Source: Candidatus Shapirobacteria bacterium GW2011_GWF2_37_20 (GTDB lineage: Bacteria > Patescibacteriota > Microgenomatia > UBA12405). From it: a stretch of 64,000 bases of DNA. Under the pieces are notes generated by a model. The model had not been told where the DNA came from, did not search any database, and saw nothing but the letters and a program-made list of their open reading frames with translations. The stretch is taken from NCBI GenBank assembly GCA_000989305.1, contig LBTB01000002.1:40411-104410 (forward strand). Reading direction: 5' to 3'. Positions 16,852 to 26,410 of the stretch are shown in pieces. A program made the translations under genes and the position numbers. Position 1 is the first letter of the stretch, and every line of letters starts with the position of its first letter.

Positions 16852-18105
16852 ATGATTCGCAAATTAAAAAATCTTTTATGGCACCTCCCACGAGGAATTT
16901 TTTGGAATCTATACTTTTCTTTCCCTAGTCGAAAATTAACCCTTATTGGCGTTACTGGTACGGACGGAAAAACAACCTGTTGTACTCTAATTCAAAAGCT
17001 TCTGGAAAATAGCGGTATCAAATGTGGCATTATCAGTACCATTAGTTCTCCCGGCCTACACACCACCAGTCCTGATCCAAAAATTCTTCAAAAAATATTT
17101 GACGATTACCAAAAACAAGGCTATACCCATGTCGTTTGCGAAGTTACCTCACACGCCCTGGACCAACATCGCTTCTGGGGTTGTCATTTTAAAAGTAGTT
17201 TAATTACCAATATTTCCCATGAGCATCTTGATTATCACAAAAATATAGACGCCTACATTGCCGCAAAGGCAAAATTATTTTCTCAATCCGATCTGGCCAT
17301 TCTCAATCGCGACGATCCTCATTATTTGGCCTTAAAAAAGCTGGTTAAAGTTCCCGTGACTACCTACGGCATTAAAAATAAATCTGATTTTACGGCCAAA
17401 AACATAAAAATTACTTCAGACTCTCTAAGTTTTAATATCAACCAACAAAAATTTGTCAGCGACAGTAACTATGAATATCAAATTTACAACATTCTTGCCT
17501 GTTACTCCATCTTTATTAAACTTAAACTCGACCCAAAAATATTTTCCGACACCATTACCAATTTCCCCGAAACTAAAGGACGACGCGAAATTATTGAAAA
17601 CAATCTTCACCTAAAAACCATCGTTGACTTTGCCCACACTCCAAACGCACTTTTTGTTACTCTCTCATCACTACGTCGGACCACTCAAGGAAAACTAATA
17701 GTTATCTTTGGTGCCACCGGTGGCCGGGATAAAACAAAAAGACCAATAATGGGAAAAAATGTCTCCCAATTGGCTGATGTTGCCATAATTACCGCCGACG
17801 ATACTAGAAATGAAAAAATCGAAGATATTAATCAGCAAATAATTTCCGGAATAGATCCTGGCAAATCTATTTTAGGCAACCCTTTAAATCCAGTTATTAC
17901 CAAAGCCCGCCGCTTTCATTATTTCAATGTTCCCAATCGACAAGATGCCTTTAACTTGGCCGTCAAAATCGCCAAAGCCGGTGATACCATCGTTGCTTGC
18001 GGAAAAGGTCACGAGACCTCTATTCTACACGAGAGCACTGAATATCCCTGGTCAGAAGCCGAAGCCTTTAGAACTGCTTTTCGCCTAAAAAACCAAAATG
18101 TATAA
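16852..18105 (+). CDS. murE: MurE-type Mur ligase (short N-terminus; DDTR specificity motif)
   Basis: GVTGTDGKTT, HTTSP, EVTSHALDQ, HEHLDYH, DFAHTP, GGRDKTKRPIMG, GKGHE. Confidence 0.9.
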   Translation: MIRKLKNLLWHLPRGIFWNLYFSFPSRKLTLIGVTGTDGKTTCCTLIQKLLENSGIKCGIISTISSPGLHTTSPDPKILQKIFDDYQKQGYTHVVCEVTSHALDQHRFWGCHFKSSLITNISHEHLDYHKNIDAYIAAKAKLFSQSDLAILNRDDPHYLALKKLVKVPVTTYGIKNKSDFTAKNIKITSDSLSFNINQQKFVSDSNYEYQIYNILACYSIFIKLKLDPKIFSDTITNFPETKGRREIIENNLHLKTIVDFAHTPNALFVTLSSLRRTTQGKLIVIFGATGGRDKTKRPIMGKNVSQLADVAIITADDTRNEKIEDINQQIISGIDPGKSILGNPLNPVITKARRFHYFNVPNRQDAFNLAVKIAKAGDTIVACGKGHETSILHESTEYPWSEAEAFRTAFRLKNQNV

Positions 18106-18697
18106 TCTAAAAAATAATTTGTCAATTGAAGAAAACTATTTGCAGGGTTATCTTCCCCAAAGAAATTCCCAAGACTCCTTTTATCAAGACGAAAACCATT
18201 CTTCTCGTTGTGATCTAAGCTTATTCCAATTATCTTCAGAGAACAGACGTATCATTAAAAAGACTGAAAATTTCACTTTTACCAAACTTCTTCTTTCAGA
18301 ATTTAACTACACCCCTCTTATTCAAAAACAAATTGTAGACTGGGTCAAAGAATTAGGATGGGATTTTCCAACCTCATCAATAAAAACCGTATTTACCAAT
18401 CATATTTTTAACTATCTATATATATGGTATGACCAAAACAAAGAAATTTGTGCCTACTCAATTTGTTATATTAATGAAAATTTTTCCCACATAGCCTATG
18501 TTTTTTATAATCCCAAATATACCCACAACGATTTGCCCATCCGACTTTCCCTGCAAGTAGTTACCGATAGTAACGACATGAAACTTAAATACTGTTATTT
18601 AGGCCGCTTTAACCCCAGTAATAAGCTTGGTTTTTATAAAAGAAACTTTCCGGGCTTCCAATATTTTACTCAGGGGACTTGGTTATCATATAATTAA
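18098..18697 (+). CDS. ATE/Bpt-like aminoacyl-tRNA-dependent transferase (GNAT fold)
   Basis: SRCDLSLFQLSSENRRIIKK, AYVFYNPKY, YCYLG, FYKRNF resemble the arginyl-tRNA-protein transferase C-terminal domain. Confidence 0.65.
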   Translation: MYNLKNNLSIEENYLQGYLPQRNSQDSFYQDENHSSRCDLSLFQLSSENRRIIKKTENFTFTKLLLSEFNYTPLIQKQIVDWVKELGWDFPTSSIKTVFTNHIFNYLYIWYDQNKEICAYSICYINENFSHIAYVFYNPKYTHNDLPIRLSLQVVTDSNDMKLKYCYLGRFNPSNKLGFYKRNFPGFQYFTQGTWLSYN

Positions 18698-18702
18698 CAA
18701 AT

Positions 18703-19992
18703 ATGCATATTTACCTTGTTGGAATTGCCGGTTCAATGACCGCCCCCTTGGCCATTGCCCTTCAAAAACAAGGCCACAAGGTCACCGGATCAGACCAAGA
18801 AAAAACCTTTCCTCCCTACCGGCAACAGCTAAAAAAAGCCAATATTTTAATTAATCAGACACCAATAAATTCTGAGATTGATTTGGCCATTATCGGCTCA
18901 TCATATTTATTCTTTAAAAAAACCAGAGAAGATTTCGAAGCCGTCAAAGCCCAAAAGATCCCCTACATTTCCGCCACTGAGTATCTTTCTAAAAACCTAA
19001 TCAAAGAAAATTCCATATTAGTTGCCGGCTCATATGGTAAAACAACCATTAGTGCCGCCCTTGCCCATCTTCTAAGCCAAGCCAAACTTAATCCTTCCTA
19101 CATGTTTGGTGGCCAAAGTCTTAATCGACTTGACTCCCTACACTTCTCCGACTCAACCTGGTCCGTCCTTGAAGCCGACGAATCAATCAACGGCCTCGAC
19201 ACCAAAGCAAAATTTCTTTATTATCCCGTTAAATATCTAATATTGACTAGTGCCCTCTGGGAACATAAAGAAAGCTATCGAAGCGATGCAAAAAACTTTG
19301 CCGCATTTTTAGAATTAGTAAAAAAAATACCCTCCGACGGTCTTCTGATATATAACCAGAACGATACTTCCATTTTGCCACTTCTTCCCCATGTCAAATG
19401 CCAAAAAATTGCTTACCAAAAAACTTCATTAAGCACTTCCTTAATCGGCAAATACAACCAAGAAAATCTTGGTGCCGTTGAAACCTTAGCTCAAAATATA
19501 AATATCTCTCCCCAAATTATTAAAAAATCCCTTTCCTCTTTTAAGGGAGTTAAAAGGCGTTTAGAACTTTGCGCTCAAGCAGGGGGGATAATATTTATCG
19601 ATGATTTTGCCCAATCAGCCAATAGAATCAAGGCGGCCCTTGAAGTCATCAAAAATACTTATCCCAAATCTCATCTTAAAGTTTTTTATGAAGCTCACGC
19701 CTCTTTTATGCAATATCGTTCTGGTGTAAAACAGCTCTGCTCTGTTTTTAATCTAGCTGATGAAACCGTCATTTTCCAACTCAAATTTAATTCAAAAATC
19801 AGCACCAAAGACAGAATTGTGGCCAAAGATTTCTTAGAAATTATTCCCCAAAGCCTTTACCTGCCCCTGGCAAGTGATGTCATAAAACATTACCGCAAAA
19901 CCCTTAAAAAGGGTGATATTTTAATTCATTTTAGTTCTGGTGGAGTTGAAGGGCAAAAAACTTTTCGAAAAATTATTAATTTATACAAATAA
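18703..19992 (+). CDS. mpl: MurC/Mpl-family ligase, closest in pattern to the murein peptide recycling ligase Mpl
   Basis: GHKVTGSDQEKTFPP, AGSYGKTT, EADE..KAKFLYY, FKGVKRRLE, DDFA; the GSD..xPP and KF.hY patterns are Mpl-like. Confidence 0.65.
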   Translation: MHIYLVGIAGSMTAPLAIALQKQGHKVTGSDQEKTFPPYRQQLKKANILINQTPINSEIDLAIIGSSYLFFKKTREDFEAVKAQKIPYISATEYLSKNLIKENSILVAGSYGKTTISAALAHLLSQAKLNPSYMFGGQSLNRLDSLHFSDSTWSVLEADESINGLDTKAKFLYYPVKYLILTSALWEHKESYRSDAKNFAAFLELVKKIPSDGLLIYNQNDTSILPLLPHVKCQKIAYQKTSLSTSLIGKYNQENLGAVETLAQNINISPQIIKKSLSSFKGVKRRLELCAQAGGIIFIDDFAQSANRIKAALEVIKNTYPKSHLKVFYEAHASFMQYRSGVKQLCSVFNLADETVIFQLKFNSKISTKDRIVAKDFLEIIPQSLYLPLASDVIKHYRKTLKKGDILIHFSSGGVEGQKTFRKIINLYK

Positions 19993-19998
19993 GAAATA

Positions 19999-21327
19999 AT
20001 GTCACGATACATAATCAACGGCGGTCAAAGCCTGAGCGGTGAAGTTTCTATCCGTGGTGCTAAAAATGCCGGCTATAAACAAATTATCGCCTCACTTCTC
20101 TCAGATAAGCCCAGTCACATCAACAACATTCCTCAAATTTCCGACGTTAAAATTACTCAAAGTATTGCCGAAAGTTTAGGCTCTCAAATAACCAGAACCG
20201 GTGAACACAGTTTAACTATTCATACTCCAAAATTTACCTCTTCAACAGTACCTCACGGTACCGGAGAAAAATCCCGAACCTCCTTTATTTTTGCCGCCCC
20301 GCTTTTAAGTCGAACTGGAATGGCCACCATTCCCACTCCTGGTGGAGACAAGCTCGGTGCCCGACCCTTGGATAGGCTTTTCGACTGCTTTTCCACCATG
20401 GGTATCAACACCGAACTCAAAGACGATCTAATGATTTTTAAAACCGATGGCATAAAAGCTACCCATTATGTTTTTAACAAACCCAGCCATACTGTCACTG
20501 AAGTTGTTGTTATGACCGCCGCCTTAGCCACCGGACAAAGTATTTTTGAAAATACTGCTCTTGAACCAGAAATTGACGATTTAATTTCCATGCTCAATTC
20601 TATGGGGGCCAAAATTCAGCGTTCTTCTCAAAATCCAAAAACTATCATCGTTGACGGAGTTCCTTCATTGTCTGGCACCAGCCATCAGGTAATTTCTGAT
20701 AGAAACGAAGCCATCACTTTTGCCTGTGCCGCATTGGCCACAAAAGGCTCTGTTAATATTCTCAGAACAGATCCCAAAATTATCAAAACCTTTTTAGATA
20801 CTGTTGAAAAAATGGGTGCCCAAATTGATAGGGGTAGTGATGAAGTTGCCGTCTCTTGGGTTAAACAATTAAAAGCGGTTGATATCGAAACCGGTCCCGA
20901 ACCAGGTTTTATGACCGACTGGCAGGCAATCTTTTCAGTTCTCTTAACTCAAGCCATCGGTGTTAGTAGTATCATCGAAAAAGTTTATCCTTCACGCTTT
21001 CAACACCTTCAATACCTGGAAAAAATGGGGGTTAAAACAGTATTGTTTAATCCTAAAATAGCCGACCCTTCCGCTTATTATGAATTTAACCCCGATACTG
21101 ATAAGCCCGAATATCTTCACGGCGTCAGAATATACGGACCAGTTAAGCTAAAACCTTCTCAATTTAGTATTAGTGATCTTAGGGCTGGTGCCTGTATAAC
21201 TTTGGCCGCCCTTACCGCTGAAGGTGAAAGTATTATCGATAATGTTGAATTTATTGAAAGAGGTTATGAAAAATTAGCCGAACGACTTTGCTCTTTGGGT
21301 GCTAATATAAAATATATCAAAACATGA
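19999..21327 (+). CDS. murA: UDP-N-acetylglucosamine 1-carboxyvinyltransferase
   Basis: GAKNA, PGGDKLGARP, EPEIDDL, PGFMTDWQ, DLRAGA, IERGYE. Confidence 0.95.
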   Translation: MSRYIINGGQSLSGEVSIRGAKNAGYKQIIASLLSDKPSHINNIPQISDVKITQSIAESLGSQITRTGEHSLTIHTPKFTSSTVPHGTGEKSRTSFIFAAPLLSRTGMATIPTPGGDKLGARPLDRLFDCFSTMGINTELKDDLMIFKTDGIKATHYVFNKPSHTVTEVVVMTAALATGQSIFENTALEPEIDDLISMLNSMGAKIQRSSQNPKTIIVDGVPSLSGTSHQVISDRNEAITFACAALATKGSVNILRTDPKIIKTFLDTVEKMGAQIDRGSDEVAVSWVKQLKAVDIETGPEPGFMTDWQAIFSVLLTQAIGVSSIIEKVYPSRFQHLQYLEKMGVKTVLFNPKIADPSAYYEFNPDTDKPEYLHGVRIYGPVKLKPSQFSISDLRAGACITLAALTAEGESIIDNVEFIERGYEKLAERLCSLGANIKYIKT

Positions 21328-22358
21328 TTCACTTATATCTTGGCCTTCTATTATTCTCCTTTCTGGCTACCAGCATTTTAGTCGTACCCTACATTAATCT
21401 TCTTTACCGACTTAAATTTCAGCGTCAAAAACAGTCCACCCTTGATTTTCAAAATCAAAAGACCCCCATCTTTGACAAATTCCACTCATTAAAAAGTGGT
21501 ACACCCGTTGGCGGTGGACTTCTTATCATTGTCACTGTTGTCATTCTTTTTGCTTTCCTGTTTCCCATGTTAAAAATGTCCCGTCTCTTTATTTCCAGTA
21601 ACTACCACCTAATCAATGAGTTGATCGTTATCTTTTTTACCTTCATAAGTTTCGGTCTTCTTGGTCTATATGACGACATTCTAAAGTTTTTTAACTTTAA
21701 AAAGTCCGGATTTTTTGGCCTAAGAATGAAATACAAATTAATTCTTCAGTTACTCTTGGCCACCGTCATTTCCAGCCTAATCTATTTTCAGCTGGGAATC
21801 AATTTTATCTATCTTCCTTTTGTAGGTGCTGTCAGTCTTGGATTATTCTTTATTCCAATTTCCACCACAATCATTGTTGCTTTTGCCAACTTTTTTAATA
21901 TCACCGATGGTTTAGACGGCTTGGCCTGTGGCACTTTGATGATTTCTCTTTTCGCTTTCTGGATTCTAGCTGGCACCTCCCTTGATACCCCCATCTCCCT
22001 CTTTTTATCCCTCTGGATCGGTTCTCTTATTGCCTTTCTTTACTTTAATGTCTACCCGGCTCGTATCTGGCTGGGAGACGTTGGTTCATTATCTTTTGGG
22101 GCCACCTTTGCTGTCATCGCTCTGCTTCTAGGAAAGGTTGTTCCTCTTTTTATTGTCGGGGCTCCTTTTATTATCGAAGGTATGACCAGTGCCATTCAAA
22201 TCTTTAGTAAAATCTATCTTCACAAAAAAATATTTCCCGCCGCTCCAATCCACCTCACTCTTCAAAAAAATGGCTGGGAAGAACCCAAAATTGTTTTTAG
22301 AGCTTGGCTAGCTGCTATTATTTTAGCTATTTTTGGACTATGGCTGGGACTAAATTAA
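21324..22358 (+). CDS. mraY: Phospho-N-acetylmuramoyl-pentapeptide transferase
   Basis: KSGTPVGGG, GLYDD, NITDGLDGLA, PARIWLGDVGS, APIH, WEEPKIV. Confidence 0.95.
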   Translation: MIHLYLGLLLFSFLATSILVVPYINLLYRLKFQRQKQSTLDFQNQKTPIFDKFHSLKSGTPVGGGLLIIVTVVILFAFLFPMLKMSRLFISSNYHLINELIVIFFTFISFGLLGLYDDILKFFNFKKSGFFGLRMKYKLILQLLLATVISSLIYFQLGINFIYLPFVGAVSLGLFFIPISTTIIVAFANFFNITDGLDGLACGTLMISLFAFWILAGTSLDTPISLFLSLWIGSLIAFLYFNVYPARIWLGDVGSLSFGATFAVIALLLGKVVPLFIVGAPFIIEGMTSAIQIFSKIYLHKKIFPAAPIHLTLQKNGWEEPKIVFRAWLAAIILAIFGLWLGLN

Positions 22359-22879
22359 GTGAATTACGTCAGGAAATTTTAAAATATATTGGCATCCCGT
22401 ACCATACCAATATCCCTAAGGTAATTTCTACTGAAAATGTTTTACTTGGTAAGGGCAATGCCAGGGAGATTGCCCTAAAAACAATTGAATTAGCCAATAA
22501 AAATAACCTAAAAATTCTAAATTTAAGTCCCCAACAAATCTATAATTTTCAAAAAAAGAATAAAATTGGCATTGATTGCTCCGGTCTGGCCTGTCATCTT
22601 CTTAATTTTTACTTTAATACCAAACTAAATGTTCGGCGCACCTCCGCCGACATGCTTAGCTCCGCCCCCTTATCAAAACAAATTGACATTTCCGACACCC
22701 AAACCGCCGACCTAATCCGACAAAAAGATGGTCACCACCTTCTCTTTGTTATCGAAAAAATTGGTGACAAAGTTGTCTATGTTGATTCTTCACGAAAGGG
22801 CAGGGGAGTACGCTATGGCGAATTCGACATCACTGACAAAAACTTCAAACACAACGGAGTTTTCAGATTAAATAGATAG
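22340..22879 (+). CDS. NlpC/P60-like cysteine peptidase
   Basis: YIGIPY and GIDCSG nucleophile motif, then ADLI...GHH; no signal peptide; ATG 22340 overlaps the mraY end. Confidence 0.7.
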   Translation: MAGTKLSELRQEILKYIGIPYHTNIPKVISTENVLLGKGNAREIALKTIELANKNNLKILNLSPQQIYNFQKKNKIGIDCSGLACHLLNFYFNTKLNVRRTSADMLSSAPLSKQIDISDTQTADLIRQKDGHHLLFVIEKIGDKVVYVDSSRKGRGVRYGEFDITDKNFKHNGVFRLNR

Positions 22880-22881
22880 GT

Positions 22882-23190
22882 TTATTTCTTTTCCCAGCGA
22901 TCCTTGTCTCTTTTTTTGTATTTATCCATTATTCTGTCAAAATGTTTGTCCAAATCAATATTAAGTGAATTAGCCAAGCATGCCAGAGTGTAGATGATGT
23001 CTGCCATTTCATCACCCAATTCCTGGGTTTCTTCAGATGGCTTTTTCTTTTTTGAACCAAAAAGATGATTTAACTCTCTTGCCGTCTCACCAACTTCTTC
23101 AACTAATCGAGCTAAAATCTCTAAAGGTTTAAAATAACCAACCTTGTACTGAGAAATCCATTCATCAACTTCTTTTTGAATCCTTTTCAT
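22882..23190 (-). CDS. MazG-like nucleotide pyrophosphohydrolase (YpjD-like)
   Basis: ARLVEEVGETARELNH and ELGDEMAD acidic motifs; KRDKDRW C-terminus. Confidence 0.88.
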   Translation of the reverse strand: MKRIQKEVDEWISQYKVGYFKPLEILARLVEEVGETARELNHLFGSKKKKPSEETQELGDEMADIIYTLACLANSLNIDLDKHFDRIMDKYKKRDKDRWEKK

Positions 23191-23354
23191 TATTTTTCCT
23201 CAATCAACTCCCGGTACCGAAGAGGGGTGGTTGAGATAATTTCCACTTCAGTTCCACATTCCTGACATTCTAAAATATCTCCAAGCATTGGGCTTTCACC
23301 TTTAATTTCCGCCTGGCAATCAGGGCAAAGAACTTTATTATTAGTATCTGGCAT
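23190..23354 (-). CDS. LysW-like small zinc-ribbon carrier protein (54 aa; not in ORF track)
   Basis: Hand translation MPDTNNKVLCPDCQAEIKGESPMLGDILECQECGTEVEIISTTPLRYRELIEEK; two CxxC pairs with LysW spacing; TAATG coupling to the MazG-like gene. Confidence 0.8.
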   Translation of the reverse strand: MPDTNNKVLCPDCQAEIKGESPMLGDILECQECGTEVEIISTTPLRYRELIEEK

Positions 23355-23388
23355 ATAATTTAGCTAAAATATAACTAATCACTATTAT

Positions 23389-24186
23389 ATGACACCACTA
23401 AGTAAAATCGATAATCTATATTTTAAACGTGAAGATTTAAATCCCACCGGCTCCGCCAAAGACAGAGCTCTACCCTTCCAGATTCAAAACTTACTAAATA
23501 ACGGCTTTAAATCCGCCGTTATTTCTTCAACCGGCAATGCCGCCATTTCCGCCACCTATTATTGTCAAAAAGAAAATATTCCCCTAACCATTTTTGTTTC
23601 TCCAAAAATCAATATCAACAAATTATCCCTTATAAAAGGCAATATCATCAAGTCTCTCAAACCAATCAGCGATGCCATCAAGTTTTCTAAAGCCAACCAT
23701 GCCTATCTTTTACGACAATCAACTGACCCCTCAGCTCAAGTAGGCTATGCTGAAATAGCCAAAGAAATATTAATTCAATTACCACAAATTACCAGCCTTT
23801 TTATTCCCGTTGGTAGTGGTACTACCTTACTGGGGATTGCCAAAGTCTTACCCAACAACGTTAAAATCTTTGCCGCCCAACCAGCCAGTAATCCAACTAT
23901 CTCTAGTGTTTTTGATCAGGATTACACACCAGAAACTCAAACCATTACCGATGCTCTTAGCGTAAAATATTTACCTCTTAAAACCGAAGTGATAAATGCA
24001 ATTAAATCACGCTATTCTTTTGGTATTGTTGTCAAAAATACTGACGCTATCAAATATTTAGATTTTGTTAAACAATTTGAAACCTCACCAGAGTCAGCCC
24101 TGACTCTAGCCGCCTACCATCAAATAAAAAATAAACCCGAAGTGGGGGATTATCCTGTTATTCTTTTAACCGGCACAAAACGCTAA
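23389..24186 (+). CDS. Fold-type II PLP-dependent enzyme (threonine synthase/cysteine synthase-like, minimal)
   Basis: KREDLNPTGSAKDR (PLP lysine), SSTGNAAIS, PVGSGTT, LLTG. Confidence 0.85.
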   Translation: MTPLSKIDNLYFKREDLNPTGSAKDRALPFQIQNLLNNGFKSAVISSTGNAAISATYYCQKENIPLTIFVSPKININKLSLIKGNIIKSLKPISDAIKFSKANHAYLLRQSTDPSAQVGYAEIAKEILIQLPQITSLFIPVGSGTTLLGIAKVLPNNVKIFAAQPASNPTISSVFDQDYTPETQTITDALSVKYLPLKTEVINAIKSRYSFGIVVKNTDAIKYLDFVKQFETSPESALTLAAYHQIKNKPEVGDYPVILLTGTKR

Positions 24187-25277
24187 TGGGCAATCTAGAG
24201 ACTTTATTAAAAAATTCCGGCTACAACTTTTTCTTTTTAGTTGTCGATAAATTCTTAGACATTAGTTTACCCCAACTTCCAAATTTTCAATCTCTGTCTC
24301 AAAAAAATCTGAAAATCAAAAATAGTGGTTTTCTTTTATCGCAGGGAAACATTCAAAATACAATTAAATCTGCCCCAAATCCGGCCATCATTCCTTTTAA
24401 GCCCTCAGCAAAAATTGAAAAAATATGTCAAAAAAATTCCTGGACCTTAGTTGCCAATCCCGCCAAAATTAATCGACTTTTAGAGAACAAAATCAAATTT
24501 TTTGAAACCTGTAACATAAATGGATTACCCATAGTTCCTGGAATTGTTGCCGAATTTAATCAAAATTCTTTTCAAAAAGCCCAAGAAAAATTTGGCAACT
24601 CTTTAGTTGTTCAAACCCATTTTGGTTGGGCAGGAAATAGTACCCATTACTTTGATAATTACGAAACAGCAAAAGCCGTTATCCCTAAAAACACTCTTGC
24701 CAAATTCTCTCCCTATTTAAAAGGATATTCCCTTCTTAATAATTGCTGTCTCACCCGCCATGGACTACTTCAAAGCCCTCCCGCCCTTCAGTACACCGGA
24801 CTACCCAACCTAACCCAAAACCCCTTTGCCACCGTTGGCCGTCAGTGGCCATCATTTGCTCCACTCGAAATCCAGGAACAGATTTACCAAATTACTGAAA
24901 ATTTTTCAAACAAAATACTTAAGCCCCTGAATTATCGTGGTTTTTTTGGTTTAGATTTTATTGTCTCTGACAATAAGGTCTACCTTCTTGAATGCAACCC
25001 GAGACTTACCGCTTCCTTCGCCTTTTATACTCAAATCGAAGTAAACAACAACCTCACCCCACTCTTTTATTACCACTTAGCTGAATTTATTAATCAAGAT
25101 TATTCAATTGATTTAAAGTTAGAACAACAACGCTTTCACCATCAAAATATTATCGGCTCTGAGATAACTCAAAGAAACAGCGACGGCCTCATCGTTAAAA
25201 AATATCACGATTTTAAGGTCTTCTCTACAAAAACAGATCCTGTCATTATTAACCAGGAAATTTTGTCAAAACTTTAG
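24186..25277 (+). CDS. ATP-grasp ligase of unknown specificity
   Basis: LENKIKF, VVQTHFGWAGNST, YRGFFGLDF, LLECNPR; coupled to the PLP gene (TAATG). Confidence 0.8.
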   Translation: MGNLETLLKNSGYNFFFLVVDKFLDISLPQLPNFQSLSQKNLKIKNSGFLLSQGNIQNTIKSAPNPAIIPFKPSAKIEKICQKNSWTLVANPAKINRLLENKIKFFETCNINGLPIVPGIVAEFNQNSFQKAQEKFGNSLVVQTHFGWAGNSTHYFDNYETAKAVIPKNTLAKFSPYLKGYSLLNNCCLTRHGLLQSPPALQYTGLPNLTQNPFATVGRQWPSFAPLEIQEQIYQITENFSNKILKPLNYRGFFGLDFIVSDNKVYLLECNPRLTASFAFYTQIEVNNNLTPLFYYHLAEFINQDYSIDLKLEQQRFHHQNIIGSEITQRNSDGLIVKKYHDFKVFSTKTDPVIINQEILSKL

Positions 25278-25279
25278 AA

Positions 25280-26410
25280 ATGAAAATTTCCCCCCTGCTT
25301 ACTTACTCCACCCTTCTCTCTTTTATCGGTTTGTTATTTATTTCTTCCTCCTCCCTTTTTGAAGCCGAAAAAACTATTGGCGACCCATATTTTTTCCTTA
25401 AAAAACAAATGCTTTGGCTTGTTGTTGGTTTAATTAGCCTCTTTATTACCTCTAAAATTAAACTAGATACTTTTGTCAACAATTCTTTTCGCCTCTATTT
25501 ATTCTCTGCTATTTTATTACTCCTGGTATTAATTCCTGGTATCGGTGCACAAGTTCTTGGCGCCAGACGTCAAATTGATTTAGGCTTTTTTAATTTTCAG
25601 CCCTCTGAACTATTTAAGTTTGCCTCAGTAATTTTCTTTTCCTTTCTTTTTTCTTTAAAGGAAAAAAGAAATTTAAAAAACTTAACCCTATATCTCGGAC
25701 CACCTTTAATTTTAATCATTCTTGAGCCAAACCTCAGTACTACTGTCATGATTGCCGCTATTGTCATTTCTATCTACTATCTTTCCGGTGCTGAAATTAT
25801 AAGCCTTTTCTCGGCCGGTTTTGTCATCACCCTTCTAAGTTTCTTATTAATTCTAGTCTCACCCTATCGTCTGGCCCGCGTTAAAACTCTTCTCAACCAG
25901 CAAAGTAATCAAGACCTGAGTTACCACAGCGAACAAATAGTACTTTCCTTAGCCTCTGGCGGGTGGTCAGGTAAAGGCTTTGCCAATTCCGACCATAAAT
26001 ATCAATTTATCCCTAAAATAAGCACCGATTCGATCCTTGCTATTGTTGGTGAAGAAACTGGCTTTGTCGGCTTAACTTTAATTAGCTATCTATTTTTACT
26101 TTTAATTTCCCGATTAATTCATATCTCTCAAGTGGCCACCGATACTTATGAAAAACTTCTCGTCAGTGGTATTGCCTGTTGGATAGCCTATCAAGGTTTA
26201 ATTAATTTTGCCGCCATTGTTGCCTTAATCCCGCTGACCGGAATTCCTTTTCCCTTCATTGCCTATGGAGGCTCCTCCCTAATCACCCTATTTTGCGCCT
26301 TGGGACTAGCTATAAATATAGAAAATAAATATTCTAAATTGCTATACTCAAAGGATGACCGAAACCAGAAAGATAATCATCACCGGCACTCATATCACCC
26401 CCGCCATTGA
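25280..26410 (+). CDS. ftsW: SEDS peptidoglycan polymerase FtsW
   Basis: GARR, FQPSELFK, EPNLST, PYRLAR, GEETGF, PLTGIPFPFIAYGGSS; upstream of murG. Confidence 0.9.
   Translation: MKISPLLTYSTLLSFIGLLFISSSSLFEAEKTIGDPYFFLKKQMLWLVVGLISLFITSKIKLDTFVNNSFRLYLFSAILLLLVLIPGIGAQVLGARRQIDLGFFNFQPSELFKFASVIFFSFLFSLKEKRNLKNLTLYLGPPLILIILEPNLSTTVMIAAIVISIYYLSGAEIISLFSAGFVITLLSFLLILVSPYRLARVKTLLNQQSNQDLSYHSEQIVLSLASGGWSGKGFANSDHKYQFIPKISTDSILAIVGEETGFVGLTLISYLFLLLISRLIHISQVATDTYEKLLVSGIACWIAYQGLINFAAIVALIPLTGIPFPFIAYGGSSLITLFCALGLAINIENKYSKLLYSKDDRNQKDNHHRHSYHPRH

Follow-up and report, generated by a model that had tools for sequence, protein, structure and literature searches.

What does a small LysW-like zinc-ribbon protein that ends in lysine do in the midst of the cell-wall genes of a patescibacterium? 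The question is raised by a 64,000-nucleotide stretch of contig LBTB01000002.1 from Candidatus Shapirobacteria bacterium GW2011_GWF2_37_20 (the window, by which we mean this whole stretch), where the protein, here called LysW-K, is encoded beside a fold-type II pyridoxal 5'-phosphate (PLP) enzyme, an ATP-grasp ligase and an NlpC/P60 cysteine peptidase-like protein. These genes form a conserved module that recurs in two types of genome, excludes MurI and MurL, takes the place of murI at one locus, and carries distinctive residue patterns in the LysW-like protein and in an associated Mur ligase. Textbooks treat D-glutamate and the MurC and MurD steps as constant features of peptidoglycan synthesis, and the routes described for supplying that D-glutamate are MurI (a single cofactor-free enzyme acting on free glutamate), D-amino acid transaminase, and MurD2/MurL. 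We consider it highly probable that the module, standing in for MurI or MurL, serves the D-glutamate position of the peptidoglycan stem; LysW-K itself would be a recyclable carrier on which L-glutamate becomes the D-glutamate of the stem.

A probable stand-in for MurI and MurL

An even draw of 301 genomes served as our sample of the phylum. Profiles built on the ligase and on the PLP enzyme found the module (LysW-K, the fold-II PLP enzyme and the ATP-grasp ligase, usually with NlpC/P60) in 34 of them, spread over 14 families; among the 34, two are cut short by contig ends and G072 has its genes on four contigs. An earlier note, made from the letters of this DNA, had proposed a variant of a carrier-protein pathway, possibly serving the cell wall, with a ligase unlike LysX/RimK, and had expected the carrier gene to accompany the PLP/ATP-grasp pair in other genomes. 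This companionship holds across the 14 families, and the general proposal of a wall-linked carrier pathway other than LysX/RimK-dependent lysine synthesis is supported. Of all its neighbours, the PLP gene is the most constant companion of the carrier gene, exceeding the ligase.

The known D-glutamate enzymes are distributed differently in module genomes and in the rest of the sample. Family PF01177 was matched in 3 of the 34 module genomes versus 126 of the 267 others; the three matches are of the Asp-racemase/CuyB type, and among the 126 (a set that includes G154, flagged as unpublished) four of five checked were MurI. No module genome exceeded the TIGR00067 (MurI) cut-off, and none of the 34 gave a strong match to MurL, which left only a 32-bit fragment in G100. 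MurL was present in 18 of 46 genomes that have MurD but neither the module nor a racemase, mostly immediately beside murD. The distribution of PF01063 enzymes showed no pattern with the module, and MurE was retained in all ten module genomes tested.

The most direct evidence for replacement of the D-glutamate step is a locus swap within one family (f50). In G142 the gene order is mraY, two shared genes, murI, murD, ftsW, murG, murC; in G051, G100 and G122 the place of murI-murD is taken by nlpC, a MurD variant (murD*), lysW-K, the PLP gene and the ligase gene. The flanking proteins are 35-84% identical between the two arrangements, the two MurDs only 30-34%. MurI with canonical MurC and MurD serves the step proposed for the module, and in many sampled Patescibacteria occupies the same place beside murD, although there one enzyme does what three to six genes would do here. 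The earlier note had the product as an unusual amino acid or dipeptide, possibly for the wall; the link to the wall stands, while the linked NlpC/P60, Mpl-like, ATE-like and MurD-type genes, which the note had overlooked, point to the D-glutamate step instead.

Gene layout in the window

The source genome (810 kb, 96% complete, with named relatives that are mostly Candidatus Shapirobacteria) carries the module region inside its division and cell wall (dcw) cluster, between mraY and ftsW. The genes concerned are these:

23190..23354, minus strand: LysW-K, LysW-like zinc-ribbon protein with C-terminal Lys, proposed carrier (54 amino acids, PF21344)
23389..24186, plus strand: fold-type II PLP enzyme, proposed epimerase (PF00291 PALP, 128 bits)
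24186..25277, plus strand: ATP-grasp ligase related to PRK06524, proposed to load Glu onto the carrier (PF02655 ATP-grasp_3, 34.9 bits)
22304..22879, plus strand: NlpC/P60 cysteine peptidase-like protein, proposed release enzyme (weak profile match, E 0.012)
18098..18697, plus strand: ATE/Bpt-like aminoacyl-tRNA transferase, putative L-Ala donor enzyme in genomes without MurC and MurD (PF04377 domain)
18703..19992, plus strand: Mpl-like Mur ligase without MurC motifs (TIGR01081, 147 bits, cut-off 388.7)
16852..18105, plus strand: MurE, the downstream acceptor step, retained
22882..23190, minus strand: MazG-like pyrophosphohydrolase, a passenger outside the module (102 amino acids, PF03819, 54 bits)
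21324..22358, plus strand: mraY, upstream flank
25280..26410, plus strand: ftsW, downstream flank (starts 2 nucleotides past the ligase gene)

Every coordinate that the earlier note gave for open reading frames (ORFs), overlaps and gaps was reproduced. The stop codon of LysW-K overlaps the ATG of the MazG-like ORF; the divergent ATGs of LysW-K (23354) and the PLP gene (23389) are separated by 34 nucleotides; and the PLP and ATP-grasp ORFs are coupled, the one ending and the other starting at 24186, with the ATG of ftsW at 25280. The 34-nucleotide gap (23355-23388) leaves scant room for two promoters, and a promoter scan of it gave 2 sites versus 2.2 expected, nothing above chance. The promoter of the PLP-ligase-ftsW-murG-ftsA-ftsZ run probably lies within the opposite-strand gene.

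Among relatives of the window locus we found 61 loci and analysed 57, having dropped three that were unrelated and one broken by a run of N. LysW-K, the PLP enzyme and NlpC/P60 were each called in 56 of these and the ligase in 54. The ATE-like gene was called in 43 (an understatement, as many loci end before it) and MazG in one. The order LysW-K, PLP, ligase is constant between mraY and ftsW wherever related contigs extend that far. The partnership with MazG that had been suggested is not supported: its coupling to LysW-K is real in the window but is not conserved, one relative having a peptide deformylase in that position, and with one occurrence in 57 loci we regard MazG as a passenger.

Profile searches of the window genome found no MurD, no Asp/Glu racemase and no Alr. 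Three Mur ligases are present, MurE, a MurF-like and the Mpl-like protein, together with a Ddl over its cut-off; the Ddl gene adjoins the murF-like gene (contig C4, L070:3355-5450), though Alr was not found in this genome. The window MurE carries DDTR, relatives EDPR, EDPY or DDPF, at a position where enzymes of the meso-diaminopimelate type presumably carry DNPR, and these variants suggest Lys or Orn at stem position 3. Elsewhere in the genome (contig C5, L068:6804-11003), a membrane protein, a RimK-related glutamate ligase and two RimK paralogues follow one another, unrelated to the carrier.

The NlpC/P60 protein of the window has a Cys78 and a His131 that are invariant in 18 aligned rows, an in-frame ATG at 22340 and, by eye, no evident signal peptide. 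Its gene adjoins the cluster in all 15 genomes of the type defined below as A and in 8 of type B; it lies away from the cluster in 3 type B genomes, the other type B genomes being six of family f31, treated below, and 2 fragmentary ones. The Mpl-like ligase is fused to NlpC/P60 in two type A genomes (G088 and G152). Fusions seen at L105:8186-10273, L186:3880-5973, L029 and L122:11153-12796 comprise Mpl-like with NlpC/P60 (two genomes), ATP-grasp with NUDIX and, at one Shapirobacteria locus, an apparent PLP and ATP-grasp frame of 626 residues.

The module also occurs beyond the phylum sample. A metagenome contig of 72% GC carries on a single strand nlpC, murD*, a LysW-like gene ending in EEEEK, and then a PLP-ligase fusion of 893 residues that NCBI labels Anaerolineae. 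PLP homologues with the same motifs, seen as genes alone, bear labels such as Caldilineae, Ardenticatenales, Gemmatimonadetes, Poribacteria and Dormibacteria, all of them labels of metagenome-assembled genomes (MAGs).

The carrier-like protein

LysW-K of the window has two CxxC motifs, the tail LIEEK and a net charge of -7. It passes the LysW-like family PF21344 (41.5 bits, cut-off 27) and falls short of the lysW equivalog TIGR01206 (43 bits, cut-off 53.2), and its closest solved structure is Thermus LysW (3wwl, E 1.7e-9). LysW itself ends in EDWGE, and LysX loads its substrate onto the terminal Glu of that tail. In the 56 related-locus copies an EDWGE end with a terminal Glu was not found: the tails are EEK (53), ETK (2) and EQK (1). 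Across the phylum sample, all 29 LysW-like genes that adjoin a PLP gene encode a terminal Lys, the two residues before it varying (EEK, VEK, VQK, IQK, EGK, LGK, ETK, EQK); the count excludes two false LysW matches and one duplicate locus. As a baseline, some 21% of 531 long ORFs of the window genome end in Lys. The five LysW-like copies in the sample with EDWGE/Q tails have no PLP gene nearby, and at the one of these examined both adjoining ligases pass the LysX profile; one further Lys-tailed copy lies on a 3-kb contig. The earlier note had cited loading on a terminal Glu as the rule for LysW-type carriers, and these tails speak against such a site here: what is conserved is a final Lys and no Glu, while the two residues before it change.

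Two more LysW-like copies, in family f86 (G147 and G214; L107:6863-9715, L111:4092-7259), have acidic tails (ELEDEV, EKDDFF) and converge on murD and murL without a nearby PLP gene. A predicted complex between carrier and PLP enzyme gave a median of 0.29 against a mark of 0.32, a result that we count neither way. The PLP enzyme and the ligase each have a charge of +9, but complementarity with the acidic carrier is uninformative, since MurG and other neighbouring proteins are more basic.

The PLP enzyme and the ligase

Beyond the general PALP family, the PLP enzyme passes no family cut-off. Its PLP lysine is Lys24, conserved in 150 of 150 representatives, and its Thr48 and Ser111 align with Ser84 and Asn154 of human serine racemase. 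The Ser84 position is Ser in 142 representatives and Thr in 8, the Asn154 position is Ser in 144 of 150, and Arg is found at position 109 in 138. The structure model (predicted local distance difference test, pLDDT, 95) had serine racemases and an Asp racemase as its ten highest-ranking Foldseek matches. Threonine synthase was considered and rejected: the family cut-off is missed, and the position mapped by eye to Arg160 of the Thermus enzyme, which we take to be its phosphate-binding Arg, is Ala, Ser or Gly in all 150. In serine racemase, S84A abolishes racemisation and S84T leaves a tenth of it; a Ser at 154 is favourable to it (PMC6424897). The motif of the PLP enzyme is thus compatible with a racemase, though not diagnostic of one. 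Compared with the fold-II serine and aspartate racemases described in the same source (PMC6424897), it is alike in fold, PLP lysine, re-face hydroxyl and the Ser of the triple-serine loop, yet only about 20-26% identical, with a conserved Arg at the His152 position and a substrate that is putative. Elsewhere in our loci, proteins of about 620 residues occur (L163:4935-6815, L170:4917-6770), of which the one examined joins a threonine synthase-like domain to a LeuA-like one at its C terminus, with a gene of the Asp-racemase type beside it.

The ligase finds its best NCBIfam match in PRK06524 (99.6 bits, cut-off 684), to which it is homologous over 434 columns with a probability of 99.95. The view that it does not resemble LysX/RimK was upheld: the RimK family reaches only E 0.065 and TIGR02144 (LysX) gives no match. 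The RimK pair elsewhere in the window genome scores 102-104 bits against the same LysX profile (cut-off 275.6), which the ligases of a control genome (G047) pass. Likewise, genes of the LysY and LysJ type (PF01118, PF00202), said to be missing from the window, were not found anywhere in the genome and were found in the G047 control, LysZ and LysK not having been searched for. Readings of the ligase as LysX or as a replacement for Ddl were set aside, the ligase not being LysX and the genome having its own Ddl. Its model (pLDDT 94) gave general ATP-grasp folds in Foldseek (biotin carboxylase, PurK; template modelling score about 0.6) and no close solved relative.

The ligase also weakly matches the gamma-glutamyl-amine ligase MfnD, which produces gamma-glutamyl-tyramine (PMC8141765). 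A plasmid search yielded PRK06524 relatives only, and in four of the six loci opened (one without annotation, one with mostly hypothetical neighbours) these adjoin amine or amide genes (decarboxylase, C45 peptidase, amidase, gabT, agmatinase). The neighbourhoods and the MfnD match together hint, weakly, that the ligase may acylate an alkylamine, for which the side chain of Lys would qualify. On the plasmids themselves, PRK06524 proteins labelled 'biotin carboxylase' (L176, L177, L196, L198) occur with a large decarboxylase-like PLP gene, C45 peptidase, amidase or agmatinase; they are probably mislabelled and may take part in a cycle of amine acylation. A paralogous clade of the ATP-grasp protein (L140-L145, L147, L149-L151, L158) is found with a RloB-like membrane protein and a RimK-related glutamate ligase, to which some loci add a QEGLA protein and a mannoside phosphorylase-like gene.

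Two genome types and a distinct MurD

The 34 module genomes fall into two types. Type A (15 genomes in 6 families, the window genome included) has the Mpl-like ligase and, in 14 genomes, the ATE-like gene; none of the 15 exceeds the MurC cut-off (TIGR01082), no MurD was found, and the MurC motifs DDY(A/G)HHP and QPH..RT are absent from the Mpl-like ligases. The Mpl-like protein is the only ligase of the MurC family found in the window genome, and its relatives score 168-262 bits against the Mpl profile TIGR01081, below the cut-off. Type B (19 genomes in 8 families) has MurC over the cut-off in 16 genomes and by motif in another (G025), a MurD-type ligase in 18, and the ATE-like gene in none. 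The ATE-like protein has the PF04377 domain with an invariant Tyr-Lys pair and stays below all arginyltransferase cut-offs; in the 46 other genomes its family gave no strong match and one weak partial one.

The MurD-type ligases of type B, which we call MurD*, pass TIGR01087 in most genomes and form one group (16 rows in a quick tree, Shimodaira-Hasegawa-like approximate likelihood ratio test (SH-aLRT) 96; 17 rows in FastTree, 0.976), the trees omitting the partial MurD of G096 and the MurD* of the high-GC contig. At the position of E. coli residue 348, where the choice of Lys or Arg sets whether MurD takes D- or L-glutamate (PMC8788868), all 16 MurD* rows have Lys and all 9 MurL-linked MurDs have Arg. 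The loop of Ser415, Phe422 and Arg425 was found by pattern in none of 17 MurD* versus 28 of 29 others, and the single miss looks complete on inspection. MurD binds the gamma-carboxylate of D-glutamate through Ser415 and Phe422 (PMC9780078), and loss of this loop is what would be expected if the gamma-carboxyl were occupied. An N-terminal insertion in MurD* was discarded as a carrier-specific mark, being common to the MurI-linked sister group.

A possible route and its alternatives

In the route we propose, the ATP-grasp ligase would join the gamma-carboxyl of L-glutamate to the epsilon-amine of the terminal Lys of LysW-K, reversing the polarity of LysW, and the PLP enzyme would epimerise the free alpha-carbon of the carrier-bound glutamate. 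The alpha-amine would next be alanylated, in type B by MurD* using UDP-N-acetylmuramoyl-L-alanine (UDP-MurNAc-L-Ala) and in type A, the window genome among them, by the ATE-like enzyme using Ala-tRNA. NlpC/P60 would then cleave the gamma-D-Glu-Lys bond. The L-Ala-D-Glu released in type A would be attached to UDP-MurNAc by the Mpl-like ligase, and MurE would proceed as normal. For two of these steps there are precedents, in that ATE and Bpt acylate N-terminal Asp or Glu from aminoacyl-tRNA (PMC9351520) and BtrI, BtrJ and BtrK exemplify PLP chemistry on side-chain-tethered glutamate (PMC11350588). Judged from sequence comparison, we lean slightly towards the full chemistry of gamma-loading, epimerisation, alanylation and release. 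That LysW-K represents a new carrier class, with the LysW fold, reversed polarity, the glutamate gamma-carboxyl on a C-terminal Lys, PLP epimerisation and incorporation into the wall by a MurD* that accepts protein-bound D-glutamate only or by tRNA-dependent alanyl transfer, is a joint claim whose chances seem to us evenly balanced.

A number of observations weigh against this interpretation. Of the 46 racemase-free and module-free genomes with MurD, 22 show no MurI, MurL or PF01063 enzyme, and such a share of controls without a recognisable D-glutamate source weakens the argument from replacement; for these genomes (e.g., G008, G032, G050, G062) a further route or uptake from a host is possible. 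In G072 there is a divergent ORF resembling a racemase (88 bits, cut-off 147), and 4 of the 34 module genomes, plus two with fragments, have a PF01063 enzyme that may be Dat or IlvE. The module profiles were built largely from the genomes that were then counted, these genomes are related so that the counts reflect some 14 lineages, and absences are drawn from MAGs. With respect to individual genes, six module genomes of family f31 lack NlpC/P60 at the locus (one, G020, has no NlpC by profile, and three of the other five have only short, weak NlpC-like ORFs elsewhere), G053 has neither MurC nor MurD and yet no ATE-like gene was found in it, and the paralogous ATP-grasp clade occurs without carrier or PLP gene. 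A constant last residue is also seen in other Shapirobacteria genes (ftsA ends in Pro in 43 of 43). As for the PLP enzyme, its best NCBIfam match is threonine synthase (88 bits, cut-off 358), the Foldseek E-values of racemases, O-acetylserine sulfhydrylase, threonine synthase and TdcB differ by less than three orders of magnitude, and a GN motif preceded by Ser or Thr is found in threonine and cysteine synthases too, so that it is not diagnostic.

Other explanations have to be set against the same data. The role could be the one proposed but the chemistry another, with the PLP enzyme racemising free glutamate and the carrier capturing or presenting the D form, or with the cargo on the terminal alpha-carboxyl. 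This would fit all the profile data, and fold-II Asp racemases do use free amino acids (PMC6424897). On the other hand, the PLP gene accompanies the carrier gene more constantly than the ligase gene does, the loss in MurD* is confined to the gamma-side loop, and linkage by the amino group would presumably prevent both PLP chemistry and alanylation, so that we regard this version as improbable, though not negligible. Somewhat more doubtful is a non-standard residue at stem position 2 (e.g., D-aminoadipate, D-Asp or a beta-substituted product) for which the MurD* loop was lost. Aminoadipate is, from the names of the structures, the classical LysW cargo, beta or gamma replacement is frequent among fold-II enzymes, and loop loss would suit any altered side chain; but MurE, which needs a side-chain carboxyl, was kept in all ten genomes tested, LysY and LysJ of the aminoadipate pathway were not found in four of five module genomes tested, and ATE and Bpt prefer Asp or Glu acceptors (PMC9351520).

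A similarly doubtful reading is salvage, in which NlpC/P60 and the Mpl-like ligase or MurD* would recycle host muropeptides and so make MurI dispensable, while carrier, PLP enzyme and ligase make another product, for example a cross-bridge or the diamino acid. Patescibacteria are host-dependent, YkfC-type peptidases and Mpl are recycling enzymes, the Mpl-NlpC fusions could be read in this sense, and so could the 22 controls that lack a visible D-glutamate source. Yet the five genes come and go with murI at one locus and form a single operon on the high-GC contig, family f31 has neither MurI nor MurL and no NlpC gene at the locus, and salvage of free D-glutamate would leave the loss of the gamma-carboxylate loop unexplained. 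A supply of D-Ala or D-Ala-D-Ala would agree with the missing Alr of the window genome, with Alr in only 1 of 15 type A genomes and with the resemblance of the PLP model to serine racemase; it is very unlikely, because Alr matches are similarly frequent in module genomes (13 of 34, 11 over the cut-off) and others (20 of 46), which argues against D-Ala supply as the role of the module, and because the window genome has its Ddl. Hardly credible, finally, is the idea that LysW-K is a standard amino-group carrier with MazG as partner, its cargo sitting on a near-terminal Glu: the LysW fold and acidic surface are retained, but the tail Glu is not fixed, MazG is confined to a single locus, LysX over the cut-off and the LysY and LysJ families were not found in the window genome, and where the phylum does have a true LysW-LysX set, its carrier tail is EDWGQ and its ligase passes TIGR02144.

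Relation to known systems and implications

The module is real and conserved, and it is undescribed in the literature searched (few subscription journals and no supplements), where no published account of it turned up. It resembles LysW/ArgW with LysX/ArgX (Thermus, Sulfolobus, Thermococcus; 3wwl, 3vpb, 5k2m) in having a small acidic two-CxxC zinc ribbon, an ATP-grasp enzyme and the logic of a carrier. It differs in its tail (EDWGE there, Lys here), in its ligase (LysX/RimK there, PRK06524-like here) and in its partners, which are a fold-II PLP enzyme, NlpC/P60 and Mur ligases, and its cargo would hang by a carboxyl rather than an amine. The MurD2/MurL system of Xanthomonas (PMC8788868) is alike in replacing MurI, in its dedicated MurD variant and, on the proposed route, in an ATP-consuming epimerisation of tethered glutamate. 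The module, however, lacks a MurL homologue and would involve a protein carrier and PLP, and its MurD* has the D-type Lys348 and has lost the loop, against Arg and a retained loop in the MurL-linked MurDs. In butirosin synthesis by BtrI, BtrJ and BtrK (PMC11350588), glutamate is tethered to a carrier through the side-chain carboxyl, which leaves the alpha-carbon free for a PLP enzyme, as it would on the proposed route, but there it is a thioester on an acyl carrier protein, decarboxylation and secondary metabolism, and here what would be a Lys isopeptide, epimerisation and primary wall synthesis. With Bpt/ATE1 and FemX (PMC9351520) the ATE-like gene shares PF04377 and the Tyr-Lys pair, and the alpha-amino group of glutamate would be the acceptor; it differs in sitting between Mur ligases and in its presumed Ala donor. 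The module is carrier-like, yet it falls outside LysW, MurL/MurD2, MurC, Mpl and threonine synthase alike.

If the proposed route is true, about one tenth of the sampled Patescibacteria, and some lineages outside the candidate phyla radiation (CPR), would begin peptidoglycan synthesis on a protein template, and the module would constitute a carboxyl-carrying counterpart to the amino-group carrier proteins. A carrier route, and a stem peptide begun from aminoacyl-tRNA, would also explain how a wall is built by the many Patescibacteria whose wall pathways appear 'incomplete'. Overall, this would amount to an undescribed way of building the bacterial wall peptide.

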